Source: an uncultured Ruminococcus sp.
GTDB taxonomy: Bacteria > Bacillota > Clostridia > Oscillospirales > CAG-272
Direction of reading: 5' to 3'
NCBI GenBank assembly: GCA_964624685.1
Contig: CAZUYA010000002.1
Span: 6,423-70,422 of the forward strand
DNA: 64,000 nt
The translations under genes and the position numbers were made by a program. Positions 348 through 54,764 of this stretch are shown piece after piece; position 1 is the first letter of the stretch, and every line of letters begins with the position of its first letter. The notes beneath the pieces were generated by a model. That model saw nothing but the letters and a program-made list of their open reading frames with translations. It was not told where the DNA came from and did no database searches.

Positions 348-358
348 AATATTTCAAA

Positions 359-395
359 CAGCGGCAGACATAGTTAAATGTCTGCCGCTGTTTTC
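359..395 (+). terminator. rho-independent terminator after glnS
   Basis: Perfect 13-bp stem cagcggcagacat/atgtctgccgctg with a 6-nt loop, followed by TTTT. Confidence 0.8.
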
Positions 396-397
396 GG

Positions 398-459
398 AAA
401 CAAAAAATGCGGCAAATTCTCGCTGATCATGCATATCGCCTTTTGCGAAAATTTGCCGC
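398..459 (-). terminator. rho-independent terminator closing the rluD-like/lnt/redox operon
   Basis: 15-bp stem with 1 mismatch (409-423 gcggcaaattctcgc, 445-459 gcgaaaatttgccgc). On the minus strand it is followed by ATTTTTTG. Confidence 0.65.
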
Positions 460-478
460 TTCCATCTACAAACTTCAA

Positions 479-1987
479 TCAATTCAATGCCGCTTCCACA
501 GCAGATTTGAGCGTTTCGTAACTCACAGAACCTTGATATTCGGCAACAACAATATTGTTTTGATCCAAAACCAACGTTCTGGGATAGGAACCGAGACCGC
601 CTAACTTCCAGTAGTAAGCGTCATTTGTATCATACCCGAACAAAATATCGTAATTCGACCAATTGGAGGCAATATAGTCAACCGGATCTTCCCAATCCAT
701 ATCGGCATGAAACGCCGCAACCGTAATCTGATCCCCGTATTCCTCGGCGATCCGTGCAAAGTGCGGCATTTCCTGCACGCAAGGACCGCAGGAAGTGTAC
801 CAGAAATTGATGACAGTCACTTTTCCGATGGTATCGGAAATATTGAAGGTTCCGCCATCTCCAACCAACAATGGCAAATCTGCTTCATAACACAGGTCGC
901 CGACTTGATAACCGAATGCAGCGAAATCACTTCCGGGCGGTGTGGAATCGGTATCCTCACCGGGTGCTTTGTCAATTACATTATAGTAAATCAAAACAAC
1001 AGCAAGTAACAGGATCATGAAAACCGTGATTCCGATTTTCAAAATCTTGTTTCTCCGTTTGATCTTTGCATTGTGTTCCTCGGCAATGCGTTCGGCTTCC
1101 TCAACCGTTACACCTTCGATCTCGTTCGGTGCCAACAACGGCTTCCCACCTTTCCATCGAATGGCTTTGGTCGGACAAACCTGCATACACTCACCGCAAT
1201 TGATACATTCAGCATCACCGACGTGGCGAATATCCATCTTACAATGGCTGACGCAAAGACCGCAATCGGTACATTTCGAGCGATCCACCTTGATGCCTAA
1301 GATGGAAATCCGATTGAATAATCCATACAATGCCCCCAAGGGACAGAAGAATCGGCAGAAAAACCGATAAATGAAAACCGCTCCGATCAAAAAACTGACC
1401 ATCAACAAAAATTTCCATGAAAAAATAGGTCCTAACATCCGAAAACTTCCCGCATTGACCTGATTGGAAAGCAAACCGATCGCGCCTTCCAATGTCCCCG
1501 CCGGGCAGATGTATTTACAAAATGCCGGAAGAGGAAAATCTTTGAACATATAAATTAACGGAAGAACAATAACAAAGACAACCAAGATCACATACTTAAA
1601 ATAGGAAAGGACTCGCGTGATCTTGCCTTTTTTCAATTTCGGTGTTTTAATCTTATGCAAAAGTTCCTGAATCAAACCAAACGGGCACAAAAATCCGCAG
1701 ATCCAACGTCCGAGCAAAATTCCGTACAACATGATAATGCCGACAACATAATACGGCGTTCTGGCATCGCTTGCCGCCAAAGCATTCTGTAAAGCTCCCA
1801 TGGGACAGGCACCGGAAGCACCTGGGCAGGAATAGCAATTCAATCCGGGAGTGCAAACGTTTTTCAAAGGTCCCTGATAGATCTTTCCGTTTTGAAATCC
1901 CTTCAGATTGGCATTAAAAAGAAGTGCCGCATATAACTGGATCAATCGTCTTTTGGTCGGCAAATGCGCTTTTATCCACTTTAACAT
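479..1987 (-). CDS. NapH/MauN-like polytopic 4Fe-4S membrane protein fused to a C-terminal TlpA/ResA-like thioredoxin domain
   Basis: Cys motifs CYSCPGASGACP, CPFG, CPAG and CPLG. Two ferredoxin-type motifs, CTDCGLCVSHC and CINCGECMQVCP. An extra TM helix (ILKIGITVFMILLLAVVLIYY) precedes a thioredoxin fold with FWYTSCGPC. SD ggagagagg lies upstream. Confidence 0.85.
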   Translation of the reverse strand: MLKWIKAHLPTKRRLIQLYAALLFNANLKGFQNGKIYQGPLKNVCTPGLNCYSCPGASGACPMGALQNALAASDARTPYYVVGIIMLYGILLGRWICGFLCPFGLIQELLHKIKTPKLKKGKITRVLSYFKYVILVVFVIVLPLIYMFKDFPLPAFCKYICPAGTLEGAIGLLSNQVNAGSFRMLGPIFSWKFLLMVSFLIGAVFIYRFFCRFFCPLGALYGLFNRISILGIKVDRSKCTDCGLCVSHCKMDIRHVGDAECINCGECMQVCPTKAIRWKGGKPLLAPNEIEGVTVEEAERIAEEHNAKIKRRNKILKIGITVFMILLLAVVLIYYNVIDKAPGEDTDSTPPGSDFAAFGYQVGDLCYEADLPLLVGDGGTFNISDTIGKVTVINFWYTSCGPCVQEMPHFARIAEEYGDQITVAAFHADMDWEDPVDYIASNWSNYDILFGYDTNDAYYWKLGGLGSYPRTLVLDQNNIVVAEYQGSVSYETLKSAVEAALN

Positions 1988-2005
1988 CTCGATTCTCCTC
2001 TCTCC

Positions 2006-3031
2006 TTATCCCAATCCGATACACTCGGTACAAATCCGAACCGCTTTGGCAAGAACATCCCCCATACCACCGTTCAAAATGCCGAGTACAATGAACAAAA
2101 AGGCAATCAACACCACCGCAATACGTACCGCCGTTATATGCCAAGAACGGCTGATTGTCGCACTTTGCACATTCCGTTCGGGAGAACGGGACAGAGCACA
2201 CAACAAAATACCGGTTAGCAACACTGCCGTCATCACGCCGGCAAGTAAGATCCAAAGCGTACCAAGAACGGACGGAGTAATCGAATGTGAAAATCCCGCA
2301 AAAATAAGCACAAAGGTACATATACACAGGCAAACGATCGGCAAAACCAATGCCAACGTTTTGACAGCATCCCGCCGAGTCCACATCATGCTCTCATGGA
2401 TTTCTTCGGATTTCGACTTTCTTCTCGGTGTCGCGGTCGCCAAGATTCCTTTCAGTGCCTCGATCTGCCGCCGACGGCTCCAATCATTGAACAATCGCAC
2501 CGCAATGCAGGTTCCGAATGCGATCACGCTACACAAAATCACCAACCGAATGGCTGCAAACACATCCCCGTTCAAATTGTCCAATGTAAAATTTTCAGCG
2601 TCGAATAAATAGAGCATCGGGGGGATCGCGCAAATCACGCAAACACACGTACAAAGAACGCGGTTACAAAAACGAATCCGATATCCGCGACGCAATGCTT
2701 CGCGCTGTTGCGGCGAAACATCGGCATCATCGATCCGTTTCAACAATCGCGAGATCGTTACCTCCGGCTCAACGGTCGCACGCGCGCGCGGCTTCTCGAC
2801 AGGAAACACCCACGTTAAAATCGCACCGACAACGACCGCGCCGATACACAGATACACCAAACCCGCGATCTTTTCAAATTGTTCAGCCACACTTTCTCTC
2901 GAAAACGGATTTTCTCCGCTGTTGTATATGGCGATACAAGATCCGATCAAACAAACTCCTACGGCAATCAACAAGATCGATAAAACAATACCGTAAATCA
3001 AATGCAATCGCCCAACGGCTGATTTTTTCAT
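2006..3031 (-). CDS. polytopic membrane protein with C-terminal CxxC tail (...RICTECIGLG-stop)
   Basis: About 8 hydrophobic helices. Start chosen at MKKSAVG because a GGAGGAGG SD precedes it; the track start at 3061 has none. There is an 18-nt gap to the downstream 4Fe-4S gene. Confidence 0.7.
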   Translation of the reverse strand: MKKSAVGRLHLIYGIVLSILLIAVGVCLIGSCIAIYNSGENPFSRESVAEQFEKIAGLVYLCIGAVVVGAILTWVFPVEKPRARATVEPEVTISRLLKRIDDADVSPQQREALRRGYRIRFCNRVLCTCVCVICAIPPMLYLFDAENFTLDNLNGDVFAAIRLVILCSVIAFGTCIAVRLFNDWSRRRQIEALKGILATATPRRKSKSEEIHESMMWTRRDAVKTLALVLPIVCLCICTFVLIFAGFSHSITPSVLGTLWILLAGVMTAVLLTGILLCALSRSPERNVQSATISRSWHITAVRIAVVLIAFLFIVLGILNGGMGDVLAKAVRICTECIGLG

Positions 3032-3094: not shown

Positions 3095-4702
3095 TCAACG
3101 AGTTTTGCGGCAACGCTCAAAACACTCTCTCCGAACGATTCCCCACAGACACAGGAATATATAAAATGCGATACAGCAATAGACGAAAGCATTGCCGATC
3201 CTACTATACAACGTCGTATGTGTTTTCAATTCCACATCGGCAACGGCATAATCTTTCGTCAAAGCGTCGATCCAAGCCAAATGTTCGCCGCGATCCGTAA
3301 TGACCGCAGAAATTCCGGTATTTCCGGAACGCACCAAATACCGTCCGCTTTCAATCGCCCGCAACATCGCCTGTGACTCATGCTGGTAGATCGCCGCCGA
3401 ATCATAAAACCAGGAATCGTTACTGGACAGCACCAACATTTCGGCACCGGCACGCACGCTATCCAAGGACAGCTCTTCATAAATAGAATCAAAACAGATC
3501 AACGCACCCAACTTTCCGCATGCCGTATCCAAAATTGCAGGATCCGTTCCCGCACTCAAATTGTTATCCATCACCATCGAAAACTCTCCTAACGGAGGTA
3601 CCAAGGTCAAGATCAGATCTTTCATCGGAATATATTCTCCGAACGGAACCAAATGACGTTTCAAATAACAGGTTTCGGCAATCGTTCCGTCCGGATCAAT
3701 CTGATACAATGCGTTGTAGCGGTTTTCCGCTTCATCTCGAAACAAGGCTCCCACGATCAATGTCACATTGCATTCCCGAGCCAGATCGGACAAATACAGT
3801 TTCACATCCGACCGCAGATTCAGCGAATACGGAAATACCGTTTCCGGCATGACAATCAACTCGGCACCTTCTTCAGCCGCTCGGCGCGTCATATCGGCAT
3901 AAATCGCTTTTGTTTTCGAAAGGCTGGTCGAATCATCCCATTTTTCATGAGAATTGACATTCCCCTGCAAAACCGCAACACGCACCGTTTTCTCGGACGG
4001 CGTTTGAAAATTCATCATCCCAATCCCTAACAGGAAATTCGAGGCGACAAGCAATACCGCCATCGCAATGCAAAACACCGAGCGACGAGGACGAAAGCGA
4101 TACAGAACGGCATATGCTAACAATCCGTTGACCAAAAGCAACAAGAAGCTGACAAAATAAGATCCGAACAACGATGCCGACTGCAACATCGGCAACAGCT
4201 TGACTTGTCCTAAACAGAGTCTCCCCCACGGGACACCCGTCCAATGTAATGTGGACGACCATTCAAATACCGTCCACAATGCCGAAAAGACAAACGGGCG
4301 CAATAACGGCGCACGTTGAAATACTTCAGTCCGATGAAGAAGCTTGAACAACAAAAAGACAAATCCGCCGGGCAACGCCTGTAATAAGGGCAGACCGATC
4401 CATCCCGCCGCAACAATGAATATCGAAGAAAAACGATCAATTCCGACCGACTCCAACGGATAAAGATATAAAAACCAGTGGTAGATTATAAAATAATAAA
4501 CATAGATCGTTAAAAAGCCATACCAATAGGTCTTTCCGAGACCGTATTTTGAAGTACCGCACAAACGATAGGCACCGATCAACAAAGGAATCAATGTAAA
4601 CCATTCCAAAAAGCCGATTTGCGGAAAGATCAAAGTCAATGCGGTCAACCCAGCACCGGACAGCAAATACGGCAAGATTCGTTTTTGCTTTTGTTCCGTC
4701 AC
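3095..4702 (-). CDS. lnt: apolipoprotein N-acyltransferase
   Basis: N-terminal multi-TM domain plus a CN-hydrolase domain. An E-K-C triad context is visible: VMPETVFP, YLKRHLVPFGEY, ALICFDSIYEE. Confidence 0.8.
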   Translation of the reverse strand: MTEQKQKRILPYLLSGAGLTALTLIFPQIGFLEWFTLIPLLIGAYRLCGTSKYGLGKTYWYGFLTIYVYYFIIYHWFLYLYPLESVGIDRFSSIFIVAAGWIGLPLLQALPGGFVFLLFKLLHRTEVFQRAPLLRPFVFSALWTVFEWSSTLHWTGVPWGRLCLGQVKLLPMLQSASLFGSYFVSFLLLLVNGLLAYAVLYRFRPRRSVFCIAMAVLLVASNFLLGIGMMNFQTPSEKTVRVAVLQGNVNSHEKWDDSTSLSKTKAIYADMTRRAAEEGAELIVMPETVFPYSLNLRSDVKLYLSDLARECNVTLIVGALFRDEAENRYNALYQIDPDGTIAETCYLKRHLVPFGEYIPMKDLILTLVPPLGEFSMVMDNNLSAGTDPAILDTACGKLGALICFDSIYEELSLDSVRAGAEMLVLSSNDSWFYDSAAIYQHESQAMLRAIESGRYLVRSGNTGISAVITDRGEHLAWIDALTKDYAVADVELKTHTTLYSRIGNAFVYCCIAFYIFLCLWGIVRRECFERCRKTR

Positions 4703-5673
4703 AATGTACCTCCTCCTTCAAATTCTTTTAAGAACCAAATCTGTTCTTGCGGCAACTCAAAAGACTTCCCCTCCAAATATCGCAGATAACTTTCTCCTTC
4801 ACAATGCTTAAAAGTCAATCGAAAAGCATACAATGCCTGATATTTATAGCCTTTTGCCCGATCGTCACGATTGATCCCGTATTTGCCGTCTCCCAGCAAC
4901 GGATGACCGATATGCGCCAATTGAGCGCGGATCTGATGCGTTCGTCCGGTCACCAATTCAACTTCCAACAAGGCATAAGCACCTTTGACTTTCAAAACGC
5001 GGTATTTGGTAATGATTTTTTTATACCCCGATTTGGGCGTATCGGAAATCTCCACCTTATTCTCCGCACTGTCCTTTTTCAAATAGGCGGTCAAAGTCGC
5101 CTGCCGACGTTCCGGACAACCGTGCGTTACGCAAAGATAGCATTTTCGCAATTCATCGTTCCGAATTTTTTCGTTCATCGAGCGCAAAGCCGCCGCATTT
5201 TTTGCGGCAATGACAATCCCGCCGGTGTTCCGGTCGATCCGATTACAAAGAGCGGGGGCGAAAGACTGTTCCGAGGACGGATCGTAAACGCCCTTCTGCG
5301 CCAAGTATGCCTTGACATGCAGGATCAATGTATTATCGGCAGCGGCAGAATCTTCATGAACCAAAACACCCGGACGCTTATTTAACAGCAAAATATTCTC
5401 ATCCTCATAAAGAATGTCCAACTTTGGCGTTACGCGAAACAATGCACCGACATCCTCCCCCGGTGCCGAAAAAAATTCTTCCCTGATAAAGAGTTGAATT
5501 TCATCCCCTTCGCAAAGCATATAATTCTGTTGTGTACGAGCACGATTGACTTTGATCTTTTTGGTTCGGATATACTTATACATCAAGGAAGTCGGCAATC
5601 CTTTGATCGCCTTGGAAAGGAATTTATCCAATCGCTGTCCGGCATCATTGCTCTGAACGATGATCGTTTGCAT
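4699..5673 (-). CDS. RluA-family 23S rRNA pseudouridine synthase (RluD/RluC-like) with N-terminal S4 domain
   Basis: S4-like GQRLDKFLSK..., catalytic-region NRIDRNTGGIVIAAK, and HQIRAQLAHIGHPLLGDGKYG. Start set at MQTIIVQ by homolog length. The SD is poor, so the start is uncertain. The stop overlaps the lnt start (ATGA). Confidence 0.8.
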   Translation of the reverse strand: MQTIIVQSNDAGQRLDKFLSKAIKGLPTSLMYKYIRTKKIKVNRARTQQNYMLCEGDEIQLFIREEFFSAPGEDVGALFRVTPKLDILYEDENILLLNKRPGVLVHEDSAAADNTLILHVKAYLAQKGVYDPSSEQSFAPALCNRIDRNTGGIVIAAKNAAALRSMNEKIRNDELRKCYLCVTHGCPERRQATLTAYLKKDSAENKVEISDTPKSGYKKIITKYRVLKVKGAYALLEVELVTGRTHQIRAQLAHIGHPLLGDGKYGINRDDRAKGYKYQALYAFRLTFKHCEGESYLRYLEGKSFELPQEQIWFLKEFEGGGTL

Positions 5674-5883
5674 GACATAACAGCGGGGAAACTCAAAAAA
5701 GCTTCCCCACACTCCTTTTTTCTTCGGAATTACAAGGTATCGAACATACAATTGCCAAATACTCGGCTGTCGACTGACCGACCGCAGTTTGCAATCATAT
5801 CATCAATAGTTTCTATTATACAACCTTTTTTCGTCTTTTTCAAGTACAAATTGCAAATTCTGCATGATTTTTCGGATTTTTTA

Positions 5884-5941: not shown

Positions 5942-7291
5942 ATGTCCAATCCCATATACACAGTCGGCATTTATACGCTCGGCTGCAAAGTCAATCAATA
6001 TGAATCGGAAGCCATTGCCGAACGCTTTACCGCCGAAGGATTTCTCGTGCAGGCTCCCACACTGCCTTGCGACATTTACATCATCAACACTTGCACCGTC
6101 ACGGCAGAGTCGGATCGAAAAGCGCGCCAATTGATCCGACGCGCCATTCATCAAAATCCGAACGCCCATATTCTTGTGACCGGATGCTTTTCTCAAACCC
6201 AACCGCAACAAATCGCCTCCATCCACGGTGTCGATTACGTTTGCGGAAATACAAAAAAATCGGCGGTCGTGGATGCCGCCAAAGCGTTGATCGCATCCGG
6301 CATCAAGCCGGAAAAACCGCTGATTTCCGTATCCGCTCCGGACGCTTTCGGATTTGAGCCGATGCAAATCTCCCGGTTTGACCGAACCCGTGCATATGTC
6401 AAAATAGAGGACGGGTGCGAAAGTCGTTGCACATACTGTATCATCCCGTCGGCGCGCGGAAAAATCCGTTCCAAAAAGCCGGACGAGGTTCTGGAAGAAG
6501 TCCAAACATTGACCGCACACGGATGTCGCGAGATCGTGCTCACCGGCATTGAGACCGCCTCCTACGGCAAAGATCTTGAAAGCTATGATCTGGCAGATCT
6601 GCTCTCGGATCTGGATCAAATTCCCGGAATCGGACGCATTCGCCTCGGCTCTTTGGATCCTTCCCTCATGAAACAAGATTTTGTGGATCGGATCGCTTCG
6701 ATTCGATCTTTGGCACCGCATTTTCATCTCTCCATGCAAAGCGGTTCGGATAAAATCCTGGCTCTGATGAAACGAAAATACAACCGCCGCATGGCTTTGG
6801 ACGGAATGGAACGATTGCGACAGGCAATCCCGCAAGTACAATTCACCACAGATATGATCGTCGGCTTTCCGCAAGAGACGGAAGAGGACTTTTCGCAAAC
6901 CATGCAATTTGCAAGGGAAGCACATTTTTTGACCATCCATGTATTTCCCTATTCCAAACGCAGCGGAACGCCTGCCGCATCCATGCCGGGACAAATTCCG
7001 GAAGCCGTCAAACATGCAAGAGTACAAACACTTTCCGAATTGCAAAGCCACATTCAAAAAGAACTGCTGCAAGCCTACATCGGTCAAACCGAACCCGTAC
7101 TTTTTGAAACCTATAAAGACGGTATGGCATACGGTCACACCGCCAACTTCATCGAAGTCGCCTGCCCTGCCGAACAGGAACTTCACGGCATTGTATTGCC
7201 GATACAAATCGAGCGTGTCGATGCGTCTGTTTGTTTCGGAAAACCGTTGACACCTCCTATCGAATCCGAAAGGAAGGAGCTTCCGCTATGA
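5942..7291 (+). CDS. mtaB: tRNA t6A37 methylthiotransferase (MiaB-like, MtaB type)
   Basis: N-terminal VGIYTLGCKVNQYESE, radical-SAM CESRCTYC, C-terminal TRAM-like region. SD aggag lies upstream. Confidence 0.85.
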   Translation: MSNPIYTVGIYTLGCKVNQYESEAIAERFTAEGFLVQAPTLPCDIYIINTCTVTAESDRKARQLIRRAIHQNPNAHILVTGCFSQTQPQQIASIHGVDYVCGNTKKSAVVDAAKALIASGIKPEKPLISVSAPDAFGFEPMQISRFDRTRAYVKIEDGCESRCTYCIIPSARGKIRSKKPDEVLEEVQTLTAHGCREIVLTGIETASYGKDLESYDLADLLSDLDQIPGIGRIRLGSLDPSLMKQDFVDRIASIRSLAPHFHLSMQSGSDKILALMKRKYNRRMALDGMERLRQAIPQVQFTTDMIVGFPQETEEDFSQTMQFAREAHFLTIHVFPYSKRSGTPAASMPGQIPEAVKHARVQTLSELQSHIQKELLQAYIGQTEPVLFETYKDGMAYGHTANFIEVACPAEQELHGIVLPIQIERVDASVCFGKPLTPPIESERKELPL

Positions 7292-9417
7292 ATCCATTCG
7301 CCGTCTTATCGAATTTCAGAAACTACACTCCAGCGCAAATCGCACAACTGAAACAAGAATTGCACCTGACCATGTCGGATAATTTGATCGCATTCTGCAT
7401 CGCCCATTACAAAACCTATGAAAAAAGAGATCCCCATGTTGATGAGATTCGATTGTTGGACAAACTTTCCCGCCTTTCGGAAGAAAACACGACTCTCCGT
7501 TGCATAACGGAACTATCGACGAACGATCCGTTCGTTGCCGAAACATATGCCGATCTGTTGCGAAAACGGAAGACACTGTTTCCGAATAGCTCACATCCGT
7601 GTACCGTTCAAGAAGCGATTCGCACAGCAAACGCATATTTGTTGCGCGCCGGAAAATCGGTCTGTCCCATACCGGCAACGCTTCTTCGAGAAACGGAGAC
7701 CGCCTGTTCCGTACTACCGACATCCACCTGCGTCGGCGCGCCGCATTCTCCCTACAGACTCCGTGTACTCTCCTCCGTAGCTGTTCCGCAATCAAACGAT
7801 CTTTTGATTCTTTTAACACCGACCAAAGCGCAATCCGCTTGTCAATTTCAAAAAGTCGTCCAATCGATCTTGGAATCTCCCGAACTCCATAACAGGATAC
7901 GAGGCGTCTGTCAAATTCGACAAGAAGGACTGCTTTGCAAACTTTTGGAACAGTTTGACAATCTGCAACTGGATCTGAGCGCACTCTCTCCTTCTCGCCT
8001 GCCCATGCCGATGACACTGCTGGTCGAACAACACTATGACGGTTGCTACATTCTCCGTGTTGCCCAAAACGCGCTTGCACTGCTGGAAAAAGTGCTTCCG
8101 ACGGACACAATCGAAGCATCACTCCTCGCGCAACTGTCGGAAAAAGGCGGCTATCTGTTTTGCCGCGGCAGAGGCGGACGCTTTTCCGTCAACACACACT
8201 TTTTACGTACAGTCTTCCGTCGCCACGCTTGTTCGGCAAACATGAATGACGAACAACCGAACATTGCACCCGTTTTACACCGCATTGTGACATCCGAATC
8301 CTGCCGATATCTGACAAATACAGATGGAGCTTTTGCAACCGAAACAACCGCAAAAAACGGCATCACCTGCACGGTTGCTTCTTCCGTTCCGAATGTTTCC
8401 TACTTCAAAACAGCACTTTACACCGCCATCATTCCGGTATTGGCTCTGTCCGCTTGCGGCATTCCGACGGAGGAACAGCAATTTTGTATCGGTCTGGATT
8501 TGCCAAAAGATTCGACCGATCCCATTGCGATCGGCGAGATTCTTTCAACCGTTTTGGGAATTTACAGAGTACAAGCCGAGTTCGGAATCCCCGCACAAAC
8601 AGCATCTCCGATTCCGCACGAATCCGCAAAACACCCGCACCTAACTGTATTTGCACTTGGAAAAGGCTCTGATCTTCCATGTACCTTAACCGATACGGAC
8701 AACTTTGTATATTGTATCCCCGTTTCGATTGACCGAAACGGATTGCCCGTTTTTTCAGAATTGAGACAATTGACCGGTCAATTGGTCCATCTGAATCGGA
8801 CAGGCGCAATCAGCAGTATGCGCATCCTGTGTAACGAAAGCATTACGGACGGCTTGCAAAACATGCGTACAACCGTTCACTGCCATCTGAACGACCTAAC
8901 CGTTGCTTCGGAAGAAAAGCTTCAACTCGCAATTCTGTTGGAAAGTCGCCATGCACTCCCCTACCGTCGGATCGGAAACACAGCCGAGAACACCGCCATA
9001 CCCGCGTTCCATAATGTGTCGAACCGAATCAATTCCCCCGATGCCTCTCTGATCTGGTCGCAAAAGGCAGAAATCGTCCTCATCTCAAAGCAACAGGATA
9101 CGGACGCGGCGGCATTGGTAACCGTTCTAACGGAACAGGGGGCAAACGTCAAACATTTTTCCGACGATCCGAAACAAGCCGATGCAATGTCACGCGCCAT
9201 TCTCGGTTCGCAAACATTGATCCTATGCCCCCGTGTAATCCTTCCGTCCGGTGAACGCATCCGTTTTGCCATCAACACAATGAAAACAGCCGGCGGAAAC
9301 ATTTTTGTACTCGGAAAATCCCCCGTATCCGAATGGATCTCTCTTCCGCATGGCTTCACAGCCGAAATTTTGCAAAAGCTTTGCAAAAAAGGAAAGGAAA
9401 ATCCAAAAAAATCTTAA
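7288..9417 (+). CDS. hypothetical 709-aa protein (possibly a degenerate PurL/AIR-synthase-related fold)
   Basis: Long uninterrupted ORF with SD GGAAGGAGC. Its ATG overlaps the mtaB stop (ATGA). No catalytic motif recognised. The N-terminal ...YEKRDPHVDEIRLLDKL... only faintly resembles FGAM-synthase N-termini. Confidence 0.6.
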   Translation: MNPFAVLSNFRNYTPAQIAQLKQELHLTMSDNLIAFCIAHYKTYEKRDPHVDEIRLLDKLSRLSEENTTLRCITELSTNDPFVAETYADLLRKRKTLFPNSSHPCTVQEAIRTANAYLLRAGKSVCPIPATLLRETETACSVLPTSTCVGAPHSPYRLRVLSSVAVPQSNDLLILLTPTKAQSACQFQKVVQSILESPELHNRIRGVCQIRQEGLLCKLLEQFDNLQLDLSALSPSRLPMPMTLLVEQHYDGCYILRVAQNALALLEKVLPTDTIEASLLAQLSEKGGYLFCRGRGGRFSVNTHFLRTVFRRHACSANMNDEQPNIAPVLHRIVTSESCRYLTNTDGAFATETTAKNGITCTVASSVPNVSYFKTALYTAIIPVLALSACGIPTEEQQFCIGLDLPKDSTDPIAIGEILSTVLGIYRVQAEFGIPAQTASPIPHESAKHPHLTVFALGKGSDLPCTLTDTDNFVYCIPVSIDRNGLPVFSELRQLTGQLVHLNRTGAISSMRILCNESITDGLQNMRTTVHCHLNDLTVASEEKLQLAILLESRHALPYRRIGNTAENTAIPAFHNVSNRINSPDASLIWSQKAEIVLISKQQDTDAAALVTVLTEQGANVKHFSDDPKQADAMSRAILGSQTLILCPRVILPSGERIRFAINTMKTAGGNIFVLGKSPVSEWISLPHGFTAEILQKLCKKGKENPKKS

Positions 9418-18249: not shown

Positions 18250-19626
18250 TTATTCGATTGTAGTATTCGACTCCGTACTTTTCTCCATAAAAAGCAACAT
18301 CAAGGCATAATAAAATAACGGATAGGTAATGAAAAACAAAACATCCACCATACCGAACACAAGAAACGCCGATAACCCGATGGCAAGAAAACTTTTTTTC
18401 AAACTCGGTTGACGCAACACCAAGCGAACCGTACAAAATCGATGCCACGCATATGCCAAAAATCCGACGATCCCGGCAGAACCGAGCATTTGAATCCAAG
18501 TGTTATGGTACAGGTACGGATAAACTTTGATCTCCCATGAAGTGTCCGCGATACCGGAATCATAAAATCCCGCGCCGAAAATCGGATGCTTTGAAAATTG
18601 CGTCCACCCGCTCTTCCAACGTTCCAATCTCCCGTTATCGTCAAAGCCGTAATTGATAAAATTTCGCAAAACATCCATCAGTTTGCCCCACAGCAAAAGA
18701 ATTCCGACTCCTCCGATCACGATGACACCCAGTGTCATGAGTCGATTGCGTTTTTTATATGCACCGAAAAAACAGACCGTAATCAAACAAACCGACAGAA
18801 CGGCGGCACCGATCAGCGTCGCTGTCCGACTTTGGGACAACACGGCTGCAACAAATTCCAACAGCCCCAATAAATAAAATATCCAACCATTCCGATGTGT
18901 TGCCGCAAAGTAAAAACATGCCGGCATCAGCATTGTCAGCAATCCTCCGAAGGAATTCCAAACCGCCCATCCCAAACAAACGGTATCTTTTTGAATGACA
19001 CCGTTCTCGATTCGTACATCCCCCATACCGTAAGCAAGAAACAGCTGTGCCACGATCAGTGCACCTGCCAAGGTCAAACAATACAAAAAATAGTCAAACG
19101 CTTTGGAATCAAACCGAACAAACAGCCCGAACAAAAGAAAAATTCCCAAAAGTGCCAACGGAAAAGAACAAGCATAAAGCAAGTTTTGCACGGTATAAGA
19201 CGCACTAAACAATCCGTTGAGCAACAAAACGGCACACAATACAAAAAGACTCGGAAGTACGTTGCTGTTGCGCAGGGATACTGCCCGCCTACGATTGCGA
19301 AGAACAAACAAAAGGATGCCACACAGAAAGGCACCGAACGTAATCGTCAAAATCGTCAGCGGAATCGGTTGTACATAGTAATCACTGAACGTCGGATGAT
19401 TCGGCGTATGTTCTACCGTCACAAAACAGACCGTGCATAAAACCGGCATGACAGCAAACCGAAAATCATCGGCGACCGCACAACCGACCAATACCGTTGC
19501 CATCATGATGATAAAAAATGCGATCTCATATCCCGACGTATGTCCGATCAAAATCAAAACGGTTACCAACATCGCATACCATTTTCCGTTATAGAAATCA
19601 CGCAAACGTTCAAAAGCGGTCTTCAT
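18250..19626 (-). CDS. O-antigen ligase/polymerase-like (Wzy_C) membrane protein
   Basis: About 11 TM helices and a Wzy_C-type block ...VLSQSRTATLIGAAVLSV... followed by an external loop. Confidence 0.6.
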   Translation of the reverse strand: MKTAFERLRDFYNGKWYAMLVTVLILIGHTSGYEIAFFIIMMATVLVGCAVADDFRFAVMPVLCTVCFVTVEHTPNHPTFSDYYVQPIPLTILTITFGAFLCGILLFVLRNRRRAVSLRNSNVLPSLFVLCAVLLLNGLFSASYTVQNLLYACSFPLALLGIFLLFGLFVRFDSKAFDYFLYCLTLAGALIVAQLFLAYGMGDVRIENGVIQKDTVCLGWAVWNSFGGLLTMLMPACFYFAATHRNGWIFYLLGLLEFVAAVLSQSRTATLIGAAVLSVCLITVCFFGAYKKRNRLMTLGVIVIGGVGILLLWGKLMDVLRNFINYGFDDNGRLERWKSGWTQFSKHPIFGAGFYDSGIADTSWEIKVYPYLYHNTWIQMLGSAGIVGFLAYAWHRFCTVRLVLRQPSLKKSFLAIGLSAFLVFGMVDVLFFITYPLFYYALMLLFMEKSTESNTTIE

Positions 19627-42565: not shown

Positions 42566-45500
42566 ATGGAACAGATAGGACTGTTTGATACACTGTGTGA
42601 GCTTCGTCAAATAATCAAAGTGCGCGAAAAGAAAAAAAGCGGAAAAACGCCCGTGGTCTGCTCGGATGAATCTTTACGTGAGATCATTCGTCTGATGCCT
42701 CGAAAAGCATCCGATTTTTACAGTATCCCCGGAATCGGTCCCGCTTTTGTGGAAAACTATGCTGAAGAATTTCTTGTCGCACTCAATCAAAAAGCCTCCG
42801 ACGGAAACGACGAAAATCATGATGTTGAAGGCACTTTGCGCGAACTTTCCAAAAAATTGATCAATATCAATAAGAGCAACCGCATGCTCTTCCTTCCCAA
42901 ACTCTCTCCAAAATATGCAGTGGATCTGTTCGGTCTTGCCGGACGAATCAATCCGTTGGATATTCTATTCAATGCTGGAACGGAGCCGACCGTGATTGCC
43001 GCCTCCGCCGATCAGGATCTTCCCCGTACCGATCCGGCAAGAGAGCGTTACAAAAATTTGACATCTTTGATCCGTGAAGTCACTCGCGATCTGCGTGACA
43101 AAGGACAGAATGACCTCTATATCGGCTATCCTTTTGTACAGGGAAACCTTGTCAACGGAGAATTCGGCATTCGTGCGCCGCTTTGTCTGTTTCCGGTCAC
43201 ATTGGATCGCTCCACTTCCAATGTGACTGTGGAAGCCGACCCGACACGTGACATTATTTATAACGGAACATTGATTTTGGCGCATGACAAATTCAATGGG
43301 ATTACCTCTCCCATGCCGGACTGCACATTGGAAGATACCGATCCGGACACCTTTTTGCAAACGCTCTTGGATTTTTATGCCGCAAACGACATCCGCATTG
43401 AATATGACAACGACGAATTGAAAAAATTTACGGAATATCCCGGCGAGTCCTTCCCGCATTATGCGCGCGGAACTCTGAAGTTGGTACACAACATCGTCAT
43501 CGGAAAATTCCCCGCTTGTTCCAACTCCATTCAAAAAGACTTTGAAGATATTTTGAACAAAGGACTGGTCAACCGCCTGGTCTCCGATCTTGTTTCGGAT
43601 TACGGTTCCACGGATTTTTATTCCGATCACACCGATTCGGCACCGGAATTGAACAGTCCGGATAAAGCAATCGACATTCGTGAAAGCTCTCTTGTCTATA
43701 TCAATGCGCTCAACAGTGCACAAGAGGCTGTCCTCAATGCATTGAACGAAAATGACGAACTGGTAGTAGAGGGACCTCCCGGAACCGGTAAATCGCAAAC
43801 CATCACCAGTTTAATTACGCAATTCGTCAATCAAGGGAAAACCGTCCTGATGGTCTCCGAGAAAAAAACCGCTCTGGATGTCGTCTATTCCCGACTCGGA
43901 AACCTTTCACGATACGCCATGATGATGGACGATGCCAACAATAAAAACCAATTTTACGGACAATTGGAACGGCTTCTGCTCAGTACCGATGCCAATGTTC
44001 CTCCGGAACTTCCGGATTTATCTCCCATTTCGGCAGAAATTGACGCAGATGTGGCAACTTTGGAAATCATTGCACAGAAATTGTTCTGTCCCGGAGAATT
44101 CGGCGTTGCACCTTACAAGCTCTATATGGAGAACCGTCGAATCAATCTGCAAAGTCACGAGCAGATCAAAACTTACAAAACCATCCGCACGGTGATTACG
44201 GACGAACTTTTGAATTTGAAATACGATGAGGTCAATGCCATTCACAAACGCTTTGCCAACGGACAACTAACAAACAGTCTGGATCACTACCAATTGACCA
44301 TTGAACGGTATCCGTGGTTCTTGAATATGAAGGACGATCTTTCCAACTATGATTTGATCCTCTTTACGGATGCCATTGATGAAATGATTCTGAAGATCGA
44401 CGAATGGCGAAATCAGTCCTTCCTCAAACGTCAAACCTCCAAAGGTCGTTTGACGAAAGAAATCCAACAAATGACAAAGGACTATTTCCAAAAGCTCAAC
44501 GGTGCTTATACCGTCCGCTTGATGATGGAACAGCCGGAAGCGGTCAAACAAAGTTTGAAAGAATTTACCGCAGGATACGCCAATCTCAAACCGGTCGTTA
44601 TGAGTTTGACCGACCATGAAAATATGTACCTGGCGGCACTCCGCAAGATTCACAAAATCTGTGGCGGAACAGTCAGCGAGTGGAATGATGAGCTTTACAA
44701 CACGATCCTGTTTGAGTACATTCAAAAATTTGAAAGTGAAAACCGTACCCTGATTCCGAAAGTTGATTCGTTTGAAAAGATCATTGATTCCATCGAAAAC
44801 AATATCAAAATCAAGCAAGATCTTTCCCGCCAACGAATCACAAAGCTGTTGGCTGATGATTTGAAATATATCACAACATCCAAACGAAAAGGCGAAATCA
44901 GCCGTGCCATTGAAAGTCGTCGGCGCAGCAGCATCGGCAAATTTGTCCAAAAGTTTGATTTTGAATTGTTCAAAGCACTGAAAATTTGGCTAATGACACC
45001 GGACGCGGTCTCCGAGGTTTTGCCGCAACAAAACGATTTGTTCGATCTTTTGATCTTTGATGAAGCTTCACAGTTATATATCGAAAAGAGTATTCCCTCT
45101 TTGATCCGTGCGAAAAAAGTCGTAATCGCCGGAGATCACAAACAACTCCGCCCCTCCAGCCTCGGAGAAGGTCGTTTTGATTTGGAAGATACGTTGGATG
45201 AGGATGCCGAAATTTCGGCGGCACTGGAAGAAGAAAGTCTGTTGGATTTGGCACGCTTCCGTTATCCCGATGTTTTGCTCAACACGCACTATCGTTCCAA
45301 ATACGAAGAATTGATCGACTTTTCCAACTATGCCTTCTATAAAGGTCGCTTGTTTGTTGCTCCCAATACCGATGTTCCGGAAAAGCCTCCCATTGAAGTG
45401 CATCAAGTGAATGATGCCACCTGGCTCGGACGTTCCAATCGCCGTGAAGCCGAAGAAGTCGTTTCACTCCTCAAAGACTTTTTCCAAACCCGCCAAAACA

Positions 45501-46306
45501 ACGAGACCATCGGAATCATCGCTTTCAATGCTTCACAACGGGATACCATCTATGACGTGATCGACGAAGAATCCGTCAAAGACCCCAAGTTCGGCACAAC
45601 GATTCGCGCCGAAATGGCGCGCAAAGATAACGGTGAGGATACCGGACTGTTTGTGAAAAACATCGAAAGCGTTCAGGGAGATGAGCGTGATGTCATTGTC
45701 TTCTCCATCGGATATGCAAAAAACGCAAGCGGAAAATTGGTACACAACTTCGGATGGCTCAATCAAAAAGGCGGTGAAAACCGATTGAACGTTGCCATCA
45801 GCCGCGCCAAGAAAAAGATTCACATCGTCACCTCTTTCCGCCCCGCCGAATTGATGTTGGATGATGCCAAAAACGACGGTCCCGGAATCCTCAAACGGTA
45901 TTTGGAATATGCATTTGCCATCAGTAACGGAAACAAGGATGAGGCTGAAATGATTTTGCGTTCATTCGGCGAAACGTACGGCATTGTGGCGGCACCGCTG
46001 GAAACTGAGTTTGCTCAAAAGGTCGCCGACGCATTGCGTGAAAAAGGCTATGAGATCGACACGCAAGTCGGAATCGGCGGTTATCGCATTGATATTGCCG
46101 TTCGCAAAAACGGAAGATACGTTTTGGGCATCGAGTGTGACGGAAAACTCTACAGTGTCGCTTCCTCGGCAAGAGAACGCGACTATCATCGCCAAAAATA
46201 TTTGGAATCCCGCGGATGGAAAATCAAACGCATTTGGAGCATGGATTGGTGGCGCGATCCGCAACGGGAAATTCATGAGATCTGCATGTTGGCGGACAGT
46301 CTGTAA
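42566..46306 (+). CDS. HRDC-like / DUF4011 / SF1 (Upf1-DNA2-like, AAA_11+AAA_12) helicase fused to a C-terminal Vsr/DUF559-type PD-(D/E)xK nuclease domain
   Basis: N-terminal SDESLREIIRLMPRKASDFYSIPGIGPAFVENYAEEFL. DUF4011-like LYIGYPFVQGNL...IRAPLCLFPVTLDR. Walker A GPPGTGKS (aa 403-410) and motif II DEASQ (aa 832). Further motifs THYRS, VQGDERDVIVFS and RLNVAISRAKKK. C-terminal GYRIDIAV...GIECDG...YLESRGWKIKRIW. Confidence 0.8.
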   Translation: MEQIGLFDTLCELRQIIKVREKKKSGKTPVVCSDESLREIIRLMPRKASDFYSIPGIGPAFVENYAEEFLVALNQKASDGNDENHDVEGTLRELSKKLININKSNRMLFLPKLSPKYAVDLFGLAGRINPLDILFNAGTEPTVIAASADQDLPRTDPARERYKNLTSLIREVTRDLRDKGQNDLYIGYPFVQGNLVNGEFGIRAPLCLFPVTLDRSTSNVTVEADPTRDIIYNGTLILAHDKFNGITSPMPDCTLEDTDPDTFLQTLLDFYAANDIRIEYDNDELKKFTEYPGESFPHYARGTLKLVHNIVIGKFPACSNSIQKDFEDILNKGLVNRLVSDLVSDYGSTDFYSDHTDSAPELNSPDKAIDIRESSLVYINALNSAQEAVLNALNENDELVVEGPPGTGKSQTITSLITQFVNQGKTVLMVSEKKTALDVVYSRLGNLSRYAMMMDDANNKNQFYGQLERLLLSTDANVPPELPDLSPISAEIDADVATLEIIAQKLFCPGEFGVAPYKLYMENRRINLQSHEQIKTYKTIRTVITDELLNLKYDEVNAIHKRFANGQLTNSLDHYQLTIERYPWFLNMKDDLSNYDLILFTDAIDEMILKIDEWRNQSFLKRQTSKGRLTKEIQQMTKDYFQKLNGAYTVRLMMEQPEAVKQSLKEFTAGYANLKPVVMSLTDHENMYLAALRKIHKICGGTVSEWNDELYNTILFEYIQKFESENRTLIPKVDSFEKIIDSIENNIKIKQDLSRQRITKLLADDLKYITTSKRKGEISRAIESRRRSSIGKFVQKFDFELFKALKIWLMTPDAVSEVLPQQNDLFDLLIFDEASQLYIEKSIPSLIRAKKVVIAGDHKQLRPSSLGEGRFDLEDTLDEDAEISAALEEESLLDLARFRYPDVLLNTHYRSKYEELIDFSNYAFYKGRLFVAPNTDVPEKPPIEVHQVNDATWLGRSNRREAEEVVSLLKDFFQTRQNNETIGIIAFNASQRDTIYDVIDEESVKDPKFGTTIRAEMARKDNGEDTGLFVKNIESVQGDERDVIVFSIGYAKNASGKLVHNFGWLNQKGGENRLNVAISRAKKKIHIVTSFRPAELMLDDAKNDGPGILKRYLEYAFAISNGNKDEAEMILRSFGETYGIVAAPLETEFAQKVADALREKGYEIDTQVGIGGYRIDIAVRKNGRYVLGIECDGKLYSVASSARERDYHRQKYLESRGWKIKRIWSMDWWRDPQREIHEICMLADSL

Positions 46307-52446: not shown

Positions 52447-52941
52447 TCACTCAGCTCCCTCCTCTTGTACATCAATGATAACGGCATACGGAATATACCA
52501 ATCCCCGATCCGAAACGCTCCTCCGCATCCTGCCGCAATCCGTACATCCGACAGACGCAAACCGTCGCCGGGTGAAAACGAACCCGTTCCCTGGATCGTA
52601 ACATCCATATCCGTATGTCCGATCCACTCGGTAATCAGAATTTTTCCATCCGAAATCACCGCCCGTCGGTGCGGACGTTGCCGAACATCCGTTACAATCC
52701 CCAGTGTCGCTGTTCCGTTTTGTGATCTGACTTCACACCCGACAGGAAATGCCGCTGTTTCCGATGACGTAAACAAGCCGGGATCCACATCGGAAATGCG
52801 AATGGTATAGCGCAATTCCACACTGGGATTTTTTATCCGGTATTGCTTCACCGCATACCAAATTCCGATCCCGCAAACCAAGATTGCCCCCAGCAAACAC
52901 CAATCAACAACCGAAAAGATTCTTCTTTTTTTCTCTGTCAC
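52447..52941 (-). CDS. DUF4330-like single-pass membrane protein (paralog 1)
   Basis: GTG start overlaps the upstream TGA (GTGA), with GGAGG 6 nt upstream. Anchor sequence is FSVVDWCLLGAILVCGIGIWY. Confidence 0.55.
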   Translation of the reverse strand: MTEKKRRIFSVVDWCLLGAILVCGIGIWYAVKQYRIKNPSVELRYTIRISDVDPGLFTSSETAAFPVGCEVRSQNGTATLGIVTDVRQRPHRRAVISDGKILITEWIGHTDMDVTIQGTGSFSPGDGLRLSDVRIAAGCGGAFRIGDWYIPYAVIIDVQEEGAE

Positions 52942-54764
52942 ACCATTGCCTCCCCATGTACCGTAGTCAAAGCACAGGTCATAAAAAACAGACCGATCAT
53001 CCCCGCACAGTACCACAAATGATCAAACAATCCCATGACCAGCACACCGCACAAAGCATACAGGCTCCCCAGACTGTGTCCATATACCGTGCAACGCAAA
53101 AAAAGCAGCCCCAACATCATGAGAAAAACCAATAACCCGAATCCGCCCAATTCAACGGCAATTTGCAAAAAGATCTGATGGGCATGCATCACCGATTCGA
53201 TTCCGCTGAAGGCATATTGCGGATAAACCGCAAAAAAAGCCTCCGATCCGACACCGATACCATAGGGATGTTCCGAAATCATCCGCAAAACGCCGCGCCA
53301 TGTGTACAGACGATAGCGGACGGAAGACTCCCCCAACTGACCGATGCTCGCAAATCTGCGAAAAACGGTGGGCGGTAACCACGACACGGCAAAAGCCGCC
53401 AACGGTAACAGAAAACATCCGAAAGCAAAAGTAGAGCGACTGTGAAAAGCAAAGAACAGGAACAGTTCCAATATCATACCGAGCCATGCGCCGCGCGTCC
53501 AAGTTAAAACCGTACACATACAGATCATTCCCGCAACCCATGCAAATAACAATCGTCTTCCAAATGATTCTTGTCGATCAAAGCAACCGCATAATGCCAT
53601 TGGCAATTGAAATAACAGATAAATTGCCAAAATATTCGGATTCTGAAAAAAGCCGGTCACACGTCCGCCAATATCCGAAAAACGCGCCGCATCCACCCAT
53701 TTCGGTTCCATGCTTCCGAAAAAATATTGGAGAATGCCGTATCCGGAACAGAAAAAAGCAGCCGCTAAAGATGCCGAACGCAACCGCCGCCTCCATAACG
53801 CATGCACAAGCAAAGATTTGGTCGGAAAATACACGCTCGCCAACAAGCATGCACACAAACCGTCCCGTGCAGATCCCCATCCGACAATTCCGCCAAACGC
53901 CAACAACAGGCAAAACAACAGAACAAAAAAATCAACAATTTCAAAGTGAAAAAGCCGTCTCCCGCAAAACAACTTGGCTCCCCATGTCAAATCGGTCAAA
54001 AGAACCGCAAAACACAGAATCACAGTCGGATGAGAGAAGCTGTGCAAAAAAGGAAATATCCCTACAATCAGAACCAAATTCCATTCCGGAACGGCAACCA
54101 AAAGCTTCAAAAGCAAAAATCCCAACAATCCGCAACAACAGTACAGAGGGGAAACCTTCCATGCCGCAACACAAAAAACAAACACGCAAAGCAAGCATCC
54201 GAAAAAGCCGATCCAATGCGCGCATTTTCGTTTTTCAGACAGATCGGAAAATCTTTCAAAAGAGATTTCGCAGGTATCGTACAAAACGAATCGGATCCAT
54301 CGGCTGTTCCGTACAACGGAAAACAACTGACCGCCGGAAAAGAGAAACGGCAAGGAAGCCGCAAGCAAGCCAAAAGAGGCAATCCACTGTCCCATATCGG
54401 AAACCAATCGAGGATGATACCGGGTAACTGCTGCAGATCCGATTCCGCACAAGAACAGAAATGCACCTACCAAAAAGCTGTCTCCCAAAAGAAATCGTTC
54501 TTGCAAAGTTTCGGATATCCGCATCGCAAGACTCTGCTCGCGGATCAGCATCCCCGTGCGATGAAATCGAAACCTCCAACCGTTGCGATCGTAGCCGTTG
54601 TCAAACAATCGAATCCGACGTGCGGCACTTCCGCATTGCTCGATTTTTATATAACAAGCACGGAGGACGGTCAAAACGGTACAGGTAGCAAAAGCCAAGC
54701 GCAAACGGTCGGCAAGTTCCGTCGCATTGCTCCAAAGGAGGCTTTTTCTCCCTTTGTTAAACAT
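52938..54764 (-). CDS. large O-antigen ligase/polymerase-like (Wzy_C) membrane protein
   Basis: 608 aa with at least 12 TM helices and a Wzy_C-like block LTWTRGAWLGMILELFLFF. GGAGGA SD before the ATG at 54764. Confidence 0.55.
   Translation of the reverse strand: MFNKGRKSLLWSNATELADRLRLAFATCTVLTVLRACYIKIEQCGSAARRIRLFDNGYDRNGWRFRFHRTGMLIREQSLAMRISETLQERFLLGDSFLVGAFLFLCGIGSAAVTRYHPRLVSDMGQWIASFGLLAASLPFLFSGGQLFSVVRNSRWIRFVLYDTCEISFERFSDLSEKRKCAHWIGFFGCLLCVFVFCVAAWKVSPLYCCCGLLGFLLLKLLVAVPEWNLVLIVGIFPFLHSFSHPTVILCFAVLLTDLTWGAKLFCGRRLFHFEIVDFFVLLFCLLLAFGGIVGWGSARDGLCACLLASVYFPTKSLLVHALWRRRLRSASLAAAFFCSGYGILQYFFGSMEPKWVDAARFSDIGGRVTGFFQNPNILAIYLLFQLPMALCGCFDRQESFGRRLLFAWVAGMICMCTVLTWTRGAWLGMILELFLFFAFHSRSTFAFGCFLLPLAAFAVSWLPPTVFRRFASIGQLGESSVRYRLYTWRGVLRMISEHPYGIGVGSEAFFAVYPQYAFSGIESVMHAHQIFLQIAVELGGFGLLVFLMMLGLLFLRCTVYGHSLGSLYALCGVLVMGLFDHLWYCAGMIGLFFMTCALTTVHGEAMV

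Follow-up and report, generated by a model that had tools for sequence, protein, structure and literature searches.

The stretch of DNA analysed here (64,000 nt from an uncultured Ruminococcus sp., contig CAZUYA010000002.1; hereafter the window) carries four successive open reading frames (ORFs) on its minus strand, which encode an RluA-family pseudouridine synthase, Lnt, a polytopic membrane protein of 341 amino acids (aa) and a protein of 502 aa. The last two are the subject of this work. The 502-aa protein is a fusion, in which a NapH-like membrane module is followed by two [4Fe-4S] ferredoxin motifs, an extra transmembrane (TM) helix and a thioredoxin of the ResA/TlpA fold, while the 341-aa protein, termed below the partner, has seven predicted TM helices and terminates with ...RICTECIGLG. 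Together they are the core of a conserved three-part module composed of a membrane protein with a CxxC tail, a NapH-like Fe-S protein and an extracytoplasmic thioredoxin. Both ORFs lie exactly where the original prediction, made from the letters of this DNA, had placed them, and the 18-nt spacing that it gave between the partner gene and the fusion gene downstream of it was confirmed. The ATG codon of the partner gene sits 5 nt 3' of GGGAGGAGG, and the fusion gene is preceded by its own AGGAG-type site. The two genes and their parts are:

479..1987, minus strand: gene of the 502-aa fusion (ORF, Pfam and NCBIfam matches, AlphaFold2 (AF2) model, family alignment)
1298..1987, minus strand: membrane module, aa 1-230, four TM helices with a Cys motif after each (hydropathy and charge, AF2)
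1133..1297, minus strand: predicted cytoplasmic ferredoxin-type domain, aa 231-285, two Cx2Cx2Cx3C motifs (C239-C249, C261-C271)
989..1045, minus strand: fifth TM helix, aa 315-333, with KIKRRNK before and an acidic linker after it, running from inside to outside
482..901, minus strand: thioredoxin domain, aa 363-502, ResA/TlpA fold (Redoxin match, Foldseek, PDB profile search)
2006..3031, minus strand: gene of the 341-aa partner (ORF, ribosome-binding site, topology, AF2 model, homologues)
2192..2377, minus strand: inserted two-helix hairpin TM5-TM6 of the partner, roughly aa 219-280 (alignment with 5-TM homologues)
2009..2131, minus strand: last TM helix and tail of the partner, aa 301-341, ending ...GILNGGMGDVLAKAVRICTECIGLG (CD1871A-family module)

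The composition proposed earlier for the fusion (a NapH/MauN-type part, two ferredoxin motifs, one more TM helix and a TlpA/ResA-like thioredoxin) is upheld by Pfam and NCBIfam, and every motif quoted in its support is present in the protein: CYSCPGASGACP, CPFG, CPAG, CPLG, CTDCGLCVSHC, CINCGECMQVCP and SCGPC. Three stretches match Fer4_5 (64.3 bits, cutoff 22), Fer4 matches twice within aa 232-280, where Fer4_7 and Fer4_10 match too, and Redoxin (Redoxin/AhpC-TSA) lies at aa 363-495 (50.3 bits, cutoff 26.6). The top NCBIfam matches were NapH/MauN and ResA/TlpA, with 83 bits against 213.05 for TIGR02163, 61 against 234 for NF007013, 40.4 against 170 for ResA (NF002854) and 36.2 against 230 for TlpA (NF047696), the last two falling short of equivalog level. 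Since all of these scores stay below the family cutoffs, the protein should be called NapH-like and ResA-like rather than NapH or ResA. It shares with NapH/MauN proteins the four TM helices, the CX3CP motifs after TM2 (C97x3C101P) and TM4 (C211x3C215P) and the two [4Fe-4S] motifs, whereas its gene has lnt, an rluC-like gene and a fragment resembling glutaminyl-tRNA synthetase as neighbours in the window, and not NapG, NapA or NapC partners as in a nap or mau operon.

All 18 cysteines within aa 1-295, of which 10 belong to the membrane module and 8 to the ferredoxin motifs, are conserved in 100% of 78 full-length cluster representatives (45 fused and 33 unfused, 38-70% identity). In the thioredoxin domain the active-site pair S-C400-G-P-C403 and the cis-proline P469 stand at invariant positions of the family alignment and motif statistics; the family consensus is WCGPC, and most homologues have WCGPC or WCTPC at the place of SCGPC in the window protein. 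Active sites of the WCGPC/WCTPC type are taken here to be those of reducing thioredoxins. The AF2 model of the fusion has a mean predicted local-distance difference test score (pLDDT) of 74.9, exceeding 90 in the thioredoxin domain and ranging between 55 and 85 in the membrane core. Foldseek against PDB matched only the thioredoxin domain, to ResA, DsbE/CcmG, TlpA, Etrx1/2 and the C-domain of DipZ, with TM-scores up to 0.89 (0.81-0.89 for structures of ResA, DsbE and Etrx2); by PDB profile search its sequence is closest to ResA, TlpA, CcmG and Etrx, and this search gave no solved structure for the NapH-like core. With its thioredoxin fold, CxxC pair, cis-proline and predicted outside position, the domain has the properties of a TlpA/ResA-type extracytoplasmic thioredoxin.

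For the partner about eight TM helices had been supposed; topology prediction and the AF2 model (helical bundle, pLDDT 81.6) give seven. No significant fold relative of it was found in PDB (best E 0.9). According to the alignment with homologues it corresponds to the usual 5-TM form enlarged by a single hairpin, and 7-TM partners are confined to the window, its closest relative L009 (numbers of this type denote the genome loci compared) and a few other close relatives, so that the insertion is lineage-specific. A small CXXC family annotated beside 4Fe-4S binding proteins, which the original prediction had mentioned as a possible link, does correspond to the tail: residues 305-341 match NF040920 (the CD1871A family) over positions 2-38 of the 38-position model with 37.4 bits (cutoff 32), and a purpose-built hidden Markov model (HMM) of the tail scores it at 77.7 bits. 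Across the family the tail reads GxxNGGxxDVLxKAxxICxECIGLG-COOH. With CD1871A the partner shares the C-terminal 37 residues (last TM helix and NGGxxDVLxKAxxICxECIGxG) and the position of its gene directly upstream of that of a NapH-like 4Fe-4S protein, which is also the context of the small forms. It differs in size, having 341 aa and six additional TM helices, whereas most members are proteins of 43-48 aa with a single TM helix; its membership, as judged by these matches, is at the domain level only. We found no published function for this family in the literature. Partners with 3, 5 or 7 TM helices have in common a motif C..IY..G..P...E in the predicted outward TM1-TM2 loop (aa 30-56 in the window protein), which is missing from 1-TM forms and may be a docking surface. 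Single-TM CD1871A peptides of 41-48 aa (P0226, P0290, P0292, P0313, P0315, P0333) are annotated as 'thioredoxin' in several metagenome-assembled genomes (MAGs) at NCBI; this label is misleading, as they are far too short for a thioredoxin fold.

A thioredoxin fused to a NapH-like protein might have been a single accident of evolution or of assembly. This was rejected by the number of its relatives: the database search returned at least 8000 scored matches, and an exhaustive profile search gave 860 clusters at 50% identity (E<=1e-30). The top 120 homologues, which were inspected (50-70% identity), all combine Fer4_5 with Redoxin, come from Clostridia or Oscillospiraceae MAGs and bear no other name than "4Fe-4S binding protein". 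The tail family comprises thousands of clusters at 90% identity. A scan of one genome per species detected the module in at least 600 species; the best 80 of these matches, used for the study of loci, belong to Clostridia of the gut and rumen (Oscillospiraceae, Christensenellales, Lachnospiraceae and others). The co-occurrence of the two genes, expected if they are partners as originally suggested, turned out to be complete: a CxxC-tailed protein is encoded directly upstream of the NapH-like gene in all 80 loci, the flanks of which are otherwise unrelated. The tail HMM detects it in 79 of them, and in the remaining one (L046) the tail has diverged to ...KVCSGCIGLF. The same was registered in four out of four metagenome contexts with unrelated flanks, where a protein of 262-273 aa without Pfam matches, ending ...CTECxGLG, is encoded 4-12 nt upstream of the fusion.

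The thioredoxin is retained just as regularly, though not always in the same polypeptide. Next to short NapH-like genes (270-340 aa, no thioredoxin domain) there is a separate thioredoxin gene of about 200 aa, which either overlaps the stop codon of the NapH-like gene or sits just upstream of the CxxC gene (split loci L067, L068, L072-074, L078, L079, L081-088, also L093-096). Thus, fused or adjacent, a thioredoxin accompanies the pair in essentially all loci examined, and this alternation of fused and split forms is independent evidence of a functional link. Some fusions contain two thioredoxin domains, and others an LRR_5 insertion. Judged from these genomic sequences, the pair is conserved across genomes and obligatory. 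In some lineages the module may be mobile: CD18710 of C. difficile 630, which is listed in a conjugative transposon (PMC12772354), adjoins CD1871A, the namesake of the tail family.

The split systems are also instructive for topology. Standalone thioredoxin homologues begin either with the signal peptide of a lipoprotein, whose lipobox reads LTAC, ISGC, LAAC, LGAC, TAGC, LVGC or VSGC, or with a signal anchor, and the latter carries the motif YYNFIDK (YYNxIDK) that follows TM5 in the window protein. Since they are lipoproteins or signal-anchored, the thioredoxin component works outside the cell, and since the ferredoxin domain is separated from it by one TM helix in the fusion, the ferredoxin domain is inside. 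The charge distribution agrees with this orientation: averaged over 90 homologues, the net charge is +4.3 at the N-terminus, +3.6 in loop 2 and +2.7 before TM5, -4.3 in the linker and -15 in the thioredoxin domain. Moreover, in some fusions a BspA-type LRR_5 domain is inserted between TM5 and the thioredoxin; such domains are typical of surface proteins. The outside location of the thioredoxin, as first proposed, is therefore retained, and a cytoplasmic thioredoxin domain was rejected by the charge bias and by the lipoprotein or signal-anchored nature of the standalone forms. Loop 1 is placed outside because of the positive-inside rule and because an even number of TM helices is needed before the ferredoxin domain. 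With this arrangement C45, C51, C54 and C61 of loop 1 and the motif C157x3C161P are predicted outside, and C97x3C101P, C211x3C215P and both [4Fe-4S] motifs inside.

In 5-TM partners about 21 lysines and arginines fall within the inside loops and 3.6 within the outside ones, and the small forms have N-termini rich in the same residues. The number of TM helices is 1, 3, 5 or 7, that is, odd in every case. The odd count together with the charge bias places the CxxC tail outside; it also means that these proteins have grown at their N-termini by hairpins that keep the tail outward. In the window protein, accordingly drawn, the N-terminus is predicted inside and the tail outside. Overall, the outer face of the complex is predicted to hold eight invariant cysteines of the two membrane proteins plus the CxxC pair of the thioredoxin, and the inner face twelve cysteines.

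Extracytoplasmic thiol-redox homeostasis in bacteria is explained almost wholly by dithiol transporters of the DsbD/CcdA type, which are fed by cytoplasmic thioredoxin. The module described here probably sends reducing power to the cell surface in a second way. We consider it fairly likely that it would work as a ferredoxin-fed transmembrane reductase for surface thioredoxins, proposed to be independent of DsbD/CcdA. Reduced ferredoxin, or some other low-potential donor in the cytoplasm, would load the two [4Fe-4S] clusters, and electrons would then traverse the membrane via the core of 10 cysteines. This core could form an Fe-S wire of extra Cys-ligated clusters, or it could act as ferredoxin:thioredoxin reductase (FTR) does, the clusters driving reduction of a CX3CP disulfide with subsequent dithiol/disulfide exchange. 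The CxxC arm of the partner and the outer Cys motifs would hand the electron pair to the fused thioredoxin, and the latter would reduce disulfides of surface or secreted proteins, including additional surface-displayed thioredoxins encoded nearby. The tail itself might take part in the relay, bind a cofactor as a ligand or be a substrate. The CX3CP motifs of NapH, NosR and RdhC have no assigned function, and disulfide chemistry was considered plausible for them (PMC5928378). In NosR only 8 Fe were found, and its authors judged disulfide chemistry more likely (PMC5928378); because of this precedent the dithiol option is favoured for the core.

A sharper form of the same idea can be offered more tentatively. 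In FTR and in heterodisulfide reductase/DsrK-DsrC, a [4Fe-4S] cluster turns the one-electron currency of ferredoxin into two-electron reduction of a disulfide, and DsrC has a flexible C-terminal arm whose two cysteines make it a redox shuttle; the CxxC tail of the partner resembles this arm. The module may then be a membrane-spanning analogue of FTR, passing ferredoxin electrons to a core dithiol, from there to the DsrC-like CxxC arm and on to surface thioredoxins, which would be a third, DsbD/CcdA-independent route. The resemblance to FTR is mechanistic only, there being no sequence relationship: neither FTR nor CCG domains were matched in Pfam at E<=0.1, and the CPC...CPC...CHC motifs are not in the sequence, which sets the module apart from FTR proper. 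Besides, FTR and the heterodisulfide and Dsr systems are soluble or face the cytoplasm, whereas the module spans the membrane.

Comparison with other known systems shows what is shared and what is not. DsbD, CcdA, ScsB and DipZ supply extracytoplasmic thioredoxins of the TlpA/ResA fold with reducing power from the other side of the cytoplasmic membrane, as is proposed for the module, and DipZ and DsbD are likewise membrane transporters fused to a C-terminal domain of thioredoxin fold, that of DipZ being one of the structural matches. However, neither of the two proteins has a PF02683 match at E<=0.1, and DsbD operates with two cysteines, one per inverted repeat, and is fed by cytoplasmic thioredoxin, whereas the module is NapH-like, with two [4Fe-4S] motifs and 10 invariant cysteines in its core. 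The thioredoxin has the fold, the closest sequences and, in split systems, the lipoprotein or membrane-anchored attachment of ResA, StoA, TlpA, CcmG and Etrx; it differs from them by WCGPC/SCGPC in place of CEPC/CVPC, and its companion, in the same chain or encoded next to it, is an Fe-S membrane protein, while thioredoxins of the ResA type are served by CcdA.

Closer in architecture are NosR, NirI, PceC and RdhC (Meheust et al. 2021, PMC8238504), which possess the Fer4_5 TM module with CX3CP motifs. For them, as for the module, a passage of electrons between the cytoplasmic or membrane side and an outer redox domain of the same polypeptide is proposed (PMC8238504), and NapH-like modules in general have been proposed as transmembrane conduits to extracytosolic flavin mononucleotide (FMN) domains (PMC8238504). 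NosR and NapH also have a C-terminal cytoplasmic di-cluster domain. The outer domain is different: in the NosR type it is N-terminal and carries FMN attached by ApbE, and in the module it is a thioredoxin, C-terminal to the extra TM helix. The module has no match in Pfam at E<=0.1 to FMN_bind, the domain that bears the flavinylation motif ([S/T]GA[S/T]) in NosR, NirI and RdhC; the NosR model gives 31.9 bits against a cutoff of 1000. Two CX3CP motifs are described for NapH, NosR and RdhC (PMC5928378), while the module has four Cys motifs, two of them predicted outward. The obligatory CxxC-tailed partner is one more difference from NosR and PceC. Architecturally, the module can be regarded as a sister type to NosR and PceC among the NapH-like/FMN conduits, with a thioredoxin where these have the flavin domain. 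No published description of a module uniting a NapH-like protein, a CxxC tail and a thioredoxin was found in the literature.

Genes beyond the module were compared in the same loci. Among 55 upstream neighbours 14 encode large cell-envelope subtilases (Peptidase_S8 + PA + fn3_5). They are found in about a quarter of the loci, mostly in divergent orientation, are very large and sometimes include LRR_5 or Big_2, and this adjacency could mean that disulfide reduction at the surface is coupled to extracellular proteolysis. Nine of 63 downstream neighbours are surface proteins with Ig-like or prealbumin repeats. Additional secreted proteins with an N-terminal thioredoxin, followed by a long region that is Ig-like or without Pfam match, occur as long-stalked proteins or lipoproteins in about 11 of the 80 loci plus L089 and L093, and are candidate clients or candidate stalked, surface-displayed thioredoxins. 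The subtilases, Ig-like proteins and thioredoxin stalks thus make the cell surface the genomic context of the module, while no nap, nos, ccm, DsbD or metal-transport genes were registered among the recurrent families of these 55 upstream and 63 downstream neighbours. The instances are:

L012, L016-L018, L020, L026, L027, L029-L031, L038, L045, L067, L071, L074: upstream subtilase
L006 1-3854: further subtilase
L089 2136-3884 (minus strand), L020 6379-9507 (minus strand), L093 3081-4004, and loci L040, L042, L048, L074: extra thioredoxin-domain surface proteins

Several observations weigh against the proposed reductase. The direction of electron flow is read off the active-site motif alone, and no gene of a cytoplasmic donor is conserved in the locus. 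Confidence of the AF2 model is moderate in the membrane core (pLDDT 55-85) and falls below 50 in the Cys-rich loop 1, and TM1 (aa 13-31) is weakly hydrophobic, which makes it the softest point of the topology model. Finally, it would be unusual for a Sec-inserted protein to have Fe-S clusters on its outer face.

Architecture by itself leaves the direction of electrons unfixed, and the flow might be reversed: the outer thioredoxin and the CxxC tail would oxidise thiols of secreted proteins, as DsbA/DsbB or MdbA/VKOR do, and the Cys core and the clusters would drain the electrons to a cytoplasmic acceptor, giving anaerobes without quinones a pathway of disulfide formation. Ig-like or prealbumin-fold surface proteins, whose relatives in Actinobacteria need oxidative folding, are frequent downstream, and TlpA-fold oxidases such as SdbA are among the Foldseek matches. 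Still, we think such a direction unlikely. The active site is mainly WCGPC or CxPC and not of the CPHC type, and the nearest relatives in sequence, ResA, CcmG and Etrx, are reductases; furthermore, low-potential clusters of the ferredoxin type do not readily take up electrons from thiols, and catalysed disulfide formation is something that strict anaerobes hardly need.

Slightly less probable again is that the electrons are exported to another acceptor, be it a metal, a flavin or the extra Cys motifs, which would act as a site of metal binding or of cupric/ferric reduction like that of CcoG. The role of thioredoxin and tail would then be confined to assembling or protecting the outer cysteines, or to handling metal as TlpA-Sco proteins do. 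It would account for the eight invariant cysteines predicted on the outer face, which exceed the needs of a simple relay, and there are faint similarities to CcoG/FixG (TIGR02745, E 1.5e-6) and SCO1-SenC (E 0.028). On the other hand, it is extra surface proteins with thioredoxin domains, and not metal transporters or chaperones, that recur among the neighbours, and the thioredoxin is kept, in the fusion or as an adjacent gene, in essentially all loci examined.

It is more doubtful still that the NapH-like core acts as a (mena)quinol dehydrogenase, its thioredoxin and tail exchanging electrons with the quinone pool instead of ferredoxin, although the best NCBIfam match is indeed NapH/MauN and the membrane modules of NapH and RdhC have been proposed to oxidise quinol (PMC5928378; PMC8238504). 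The NapH score is far under its cutoff (83 versus 213), and the invariant cytoplasmic di-cluster domain indicates a redox partner in the cytoplasm. Besides, menaquinol, with a potential of about -75 mV, would not be strong enough to reduce a WCGPC thioredoxin. The last alternative, that the two proteins do not interact and are merely co-expressed with lnt and rluC for lipoprotein maturation or ribosome modification, draws on the arrangement of the four window genes (one strand, short gaps, shared terminators) and is effectively refuted by the comparative data, as the partner stays with the NapH-like gene in all 80 loci among unrelated flanks while lnt and rluC adjoin it only in the window and L009.

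The remaining elements around the pair in the window are:

3095-4702, minus strand: lnt (TIGR00546, 302 bits versus cutoff 133; LNT_N + CN_hydrolase)
4699-5751, minus strand: RluA-family pseudouridine synthase (NCBIfam)
3095..5751, minus strand: upstream context formed by these two genes, outside the conserved module
398..459, minus strand: first terminator-like hairpin, 15-bp stem at 459-409 and a T-run to 398
356..393, minus strand: second, stronger terminator hairpin, 16-bp stem (sequence, RNA fold)

The neighbours of the pair are lnt, the rluC-like gene and a fragment resembling glutaminyl-tRNA synthetase. The original prediction was right in placing lnt and an rluD-like gene upstream on the same strand; its tiny gaps do not hold throughout, since 63 nt separate lnt from the partner gene. 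In the window lnt and the RluA-family gene are probably co-transcribed with the module. A functional link with them, which had been implied, was rejected owing to the restricted adjacency noted above, and the linkage is, on this comparison, a lineage-specific context. Likewise, the hairpin reported at 398-459 is present, but it is not a single terminator: a second and stronger one lies at 393-356, which may also terminate the convergent gene at 6-347, and the RNA fold z-score of this region 3' of the fusion gene is -7.9. No second thioredoxin, NapH-like or tail ORF was found within the 64-kb window, and none of its 10 ORFs scanned, mostly membrane proteins, gave a Pfam match of the DsbD type.

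Some features of the window deserve mention in their own right. A full-length Lnt (3095-4702, minus strand) is encoded directly upstream of the module in a genome of the Clostridia type; as a rule, low-GC Gram-positives are regarded as being without Lnt. At 42566-46306 (plus strand) there is a gene for a 1246-aa protein with HRDC, DUF4011, an AAA_11/AAA_12 superfamily-1 helicase and a C-terminal MTES_1575/DUF559 restriction-endonuclease-like domain, adjoining what looks like the mraZ end of a cell-division (dcw) cluster. A 728-aa ORF without Pfam match at E<=0.001 (7231-9417, plus strand) lies 3' of, and slightly overlaps, a 449-aa ORF at 5942-7291, which by its N-terminal sequence alone is taken to be a MiaB/MtaB-like radical-SAM gene. 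Two separate polytopic proteins with Wzy_C (O-antigen ligase-like) are encoded at 18250-19626 and 52938-54764, both on the minus strand.

The module is common and concentrated in gut and rumen Clostridia, and current annotations hide it behind the names "4Fe-4S binding protein", "hypothetical protein" or, wrongly for a 45-aa peptide, "thioredoxin". The obligatory pairing of NapH-like protein, thioredoxin and CxxC tail offers a testable way to approach what the CX3CP motifs, common to the module and to NapH, NosR and RdhC, do, and if the module is an analogue of FTR, the role of these motifs in all three would be revealed. If the proposal is true, the widespread Fe-S alternative would give reducing power, most likely that of ferredoxin, a new way into the cell envelope. 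It could explain how strict anaerobes keep their surface proteins reduced or, beside cell-envelope proteases, how disulfides of dietary or host proteins outside the cell are reduced.

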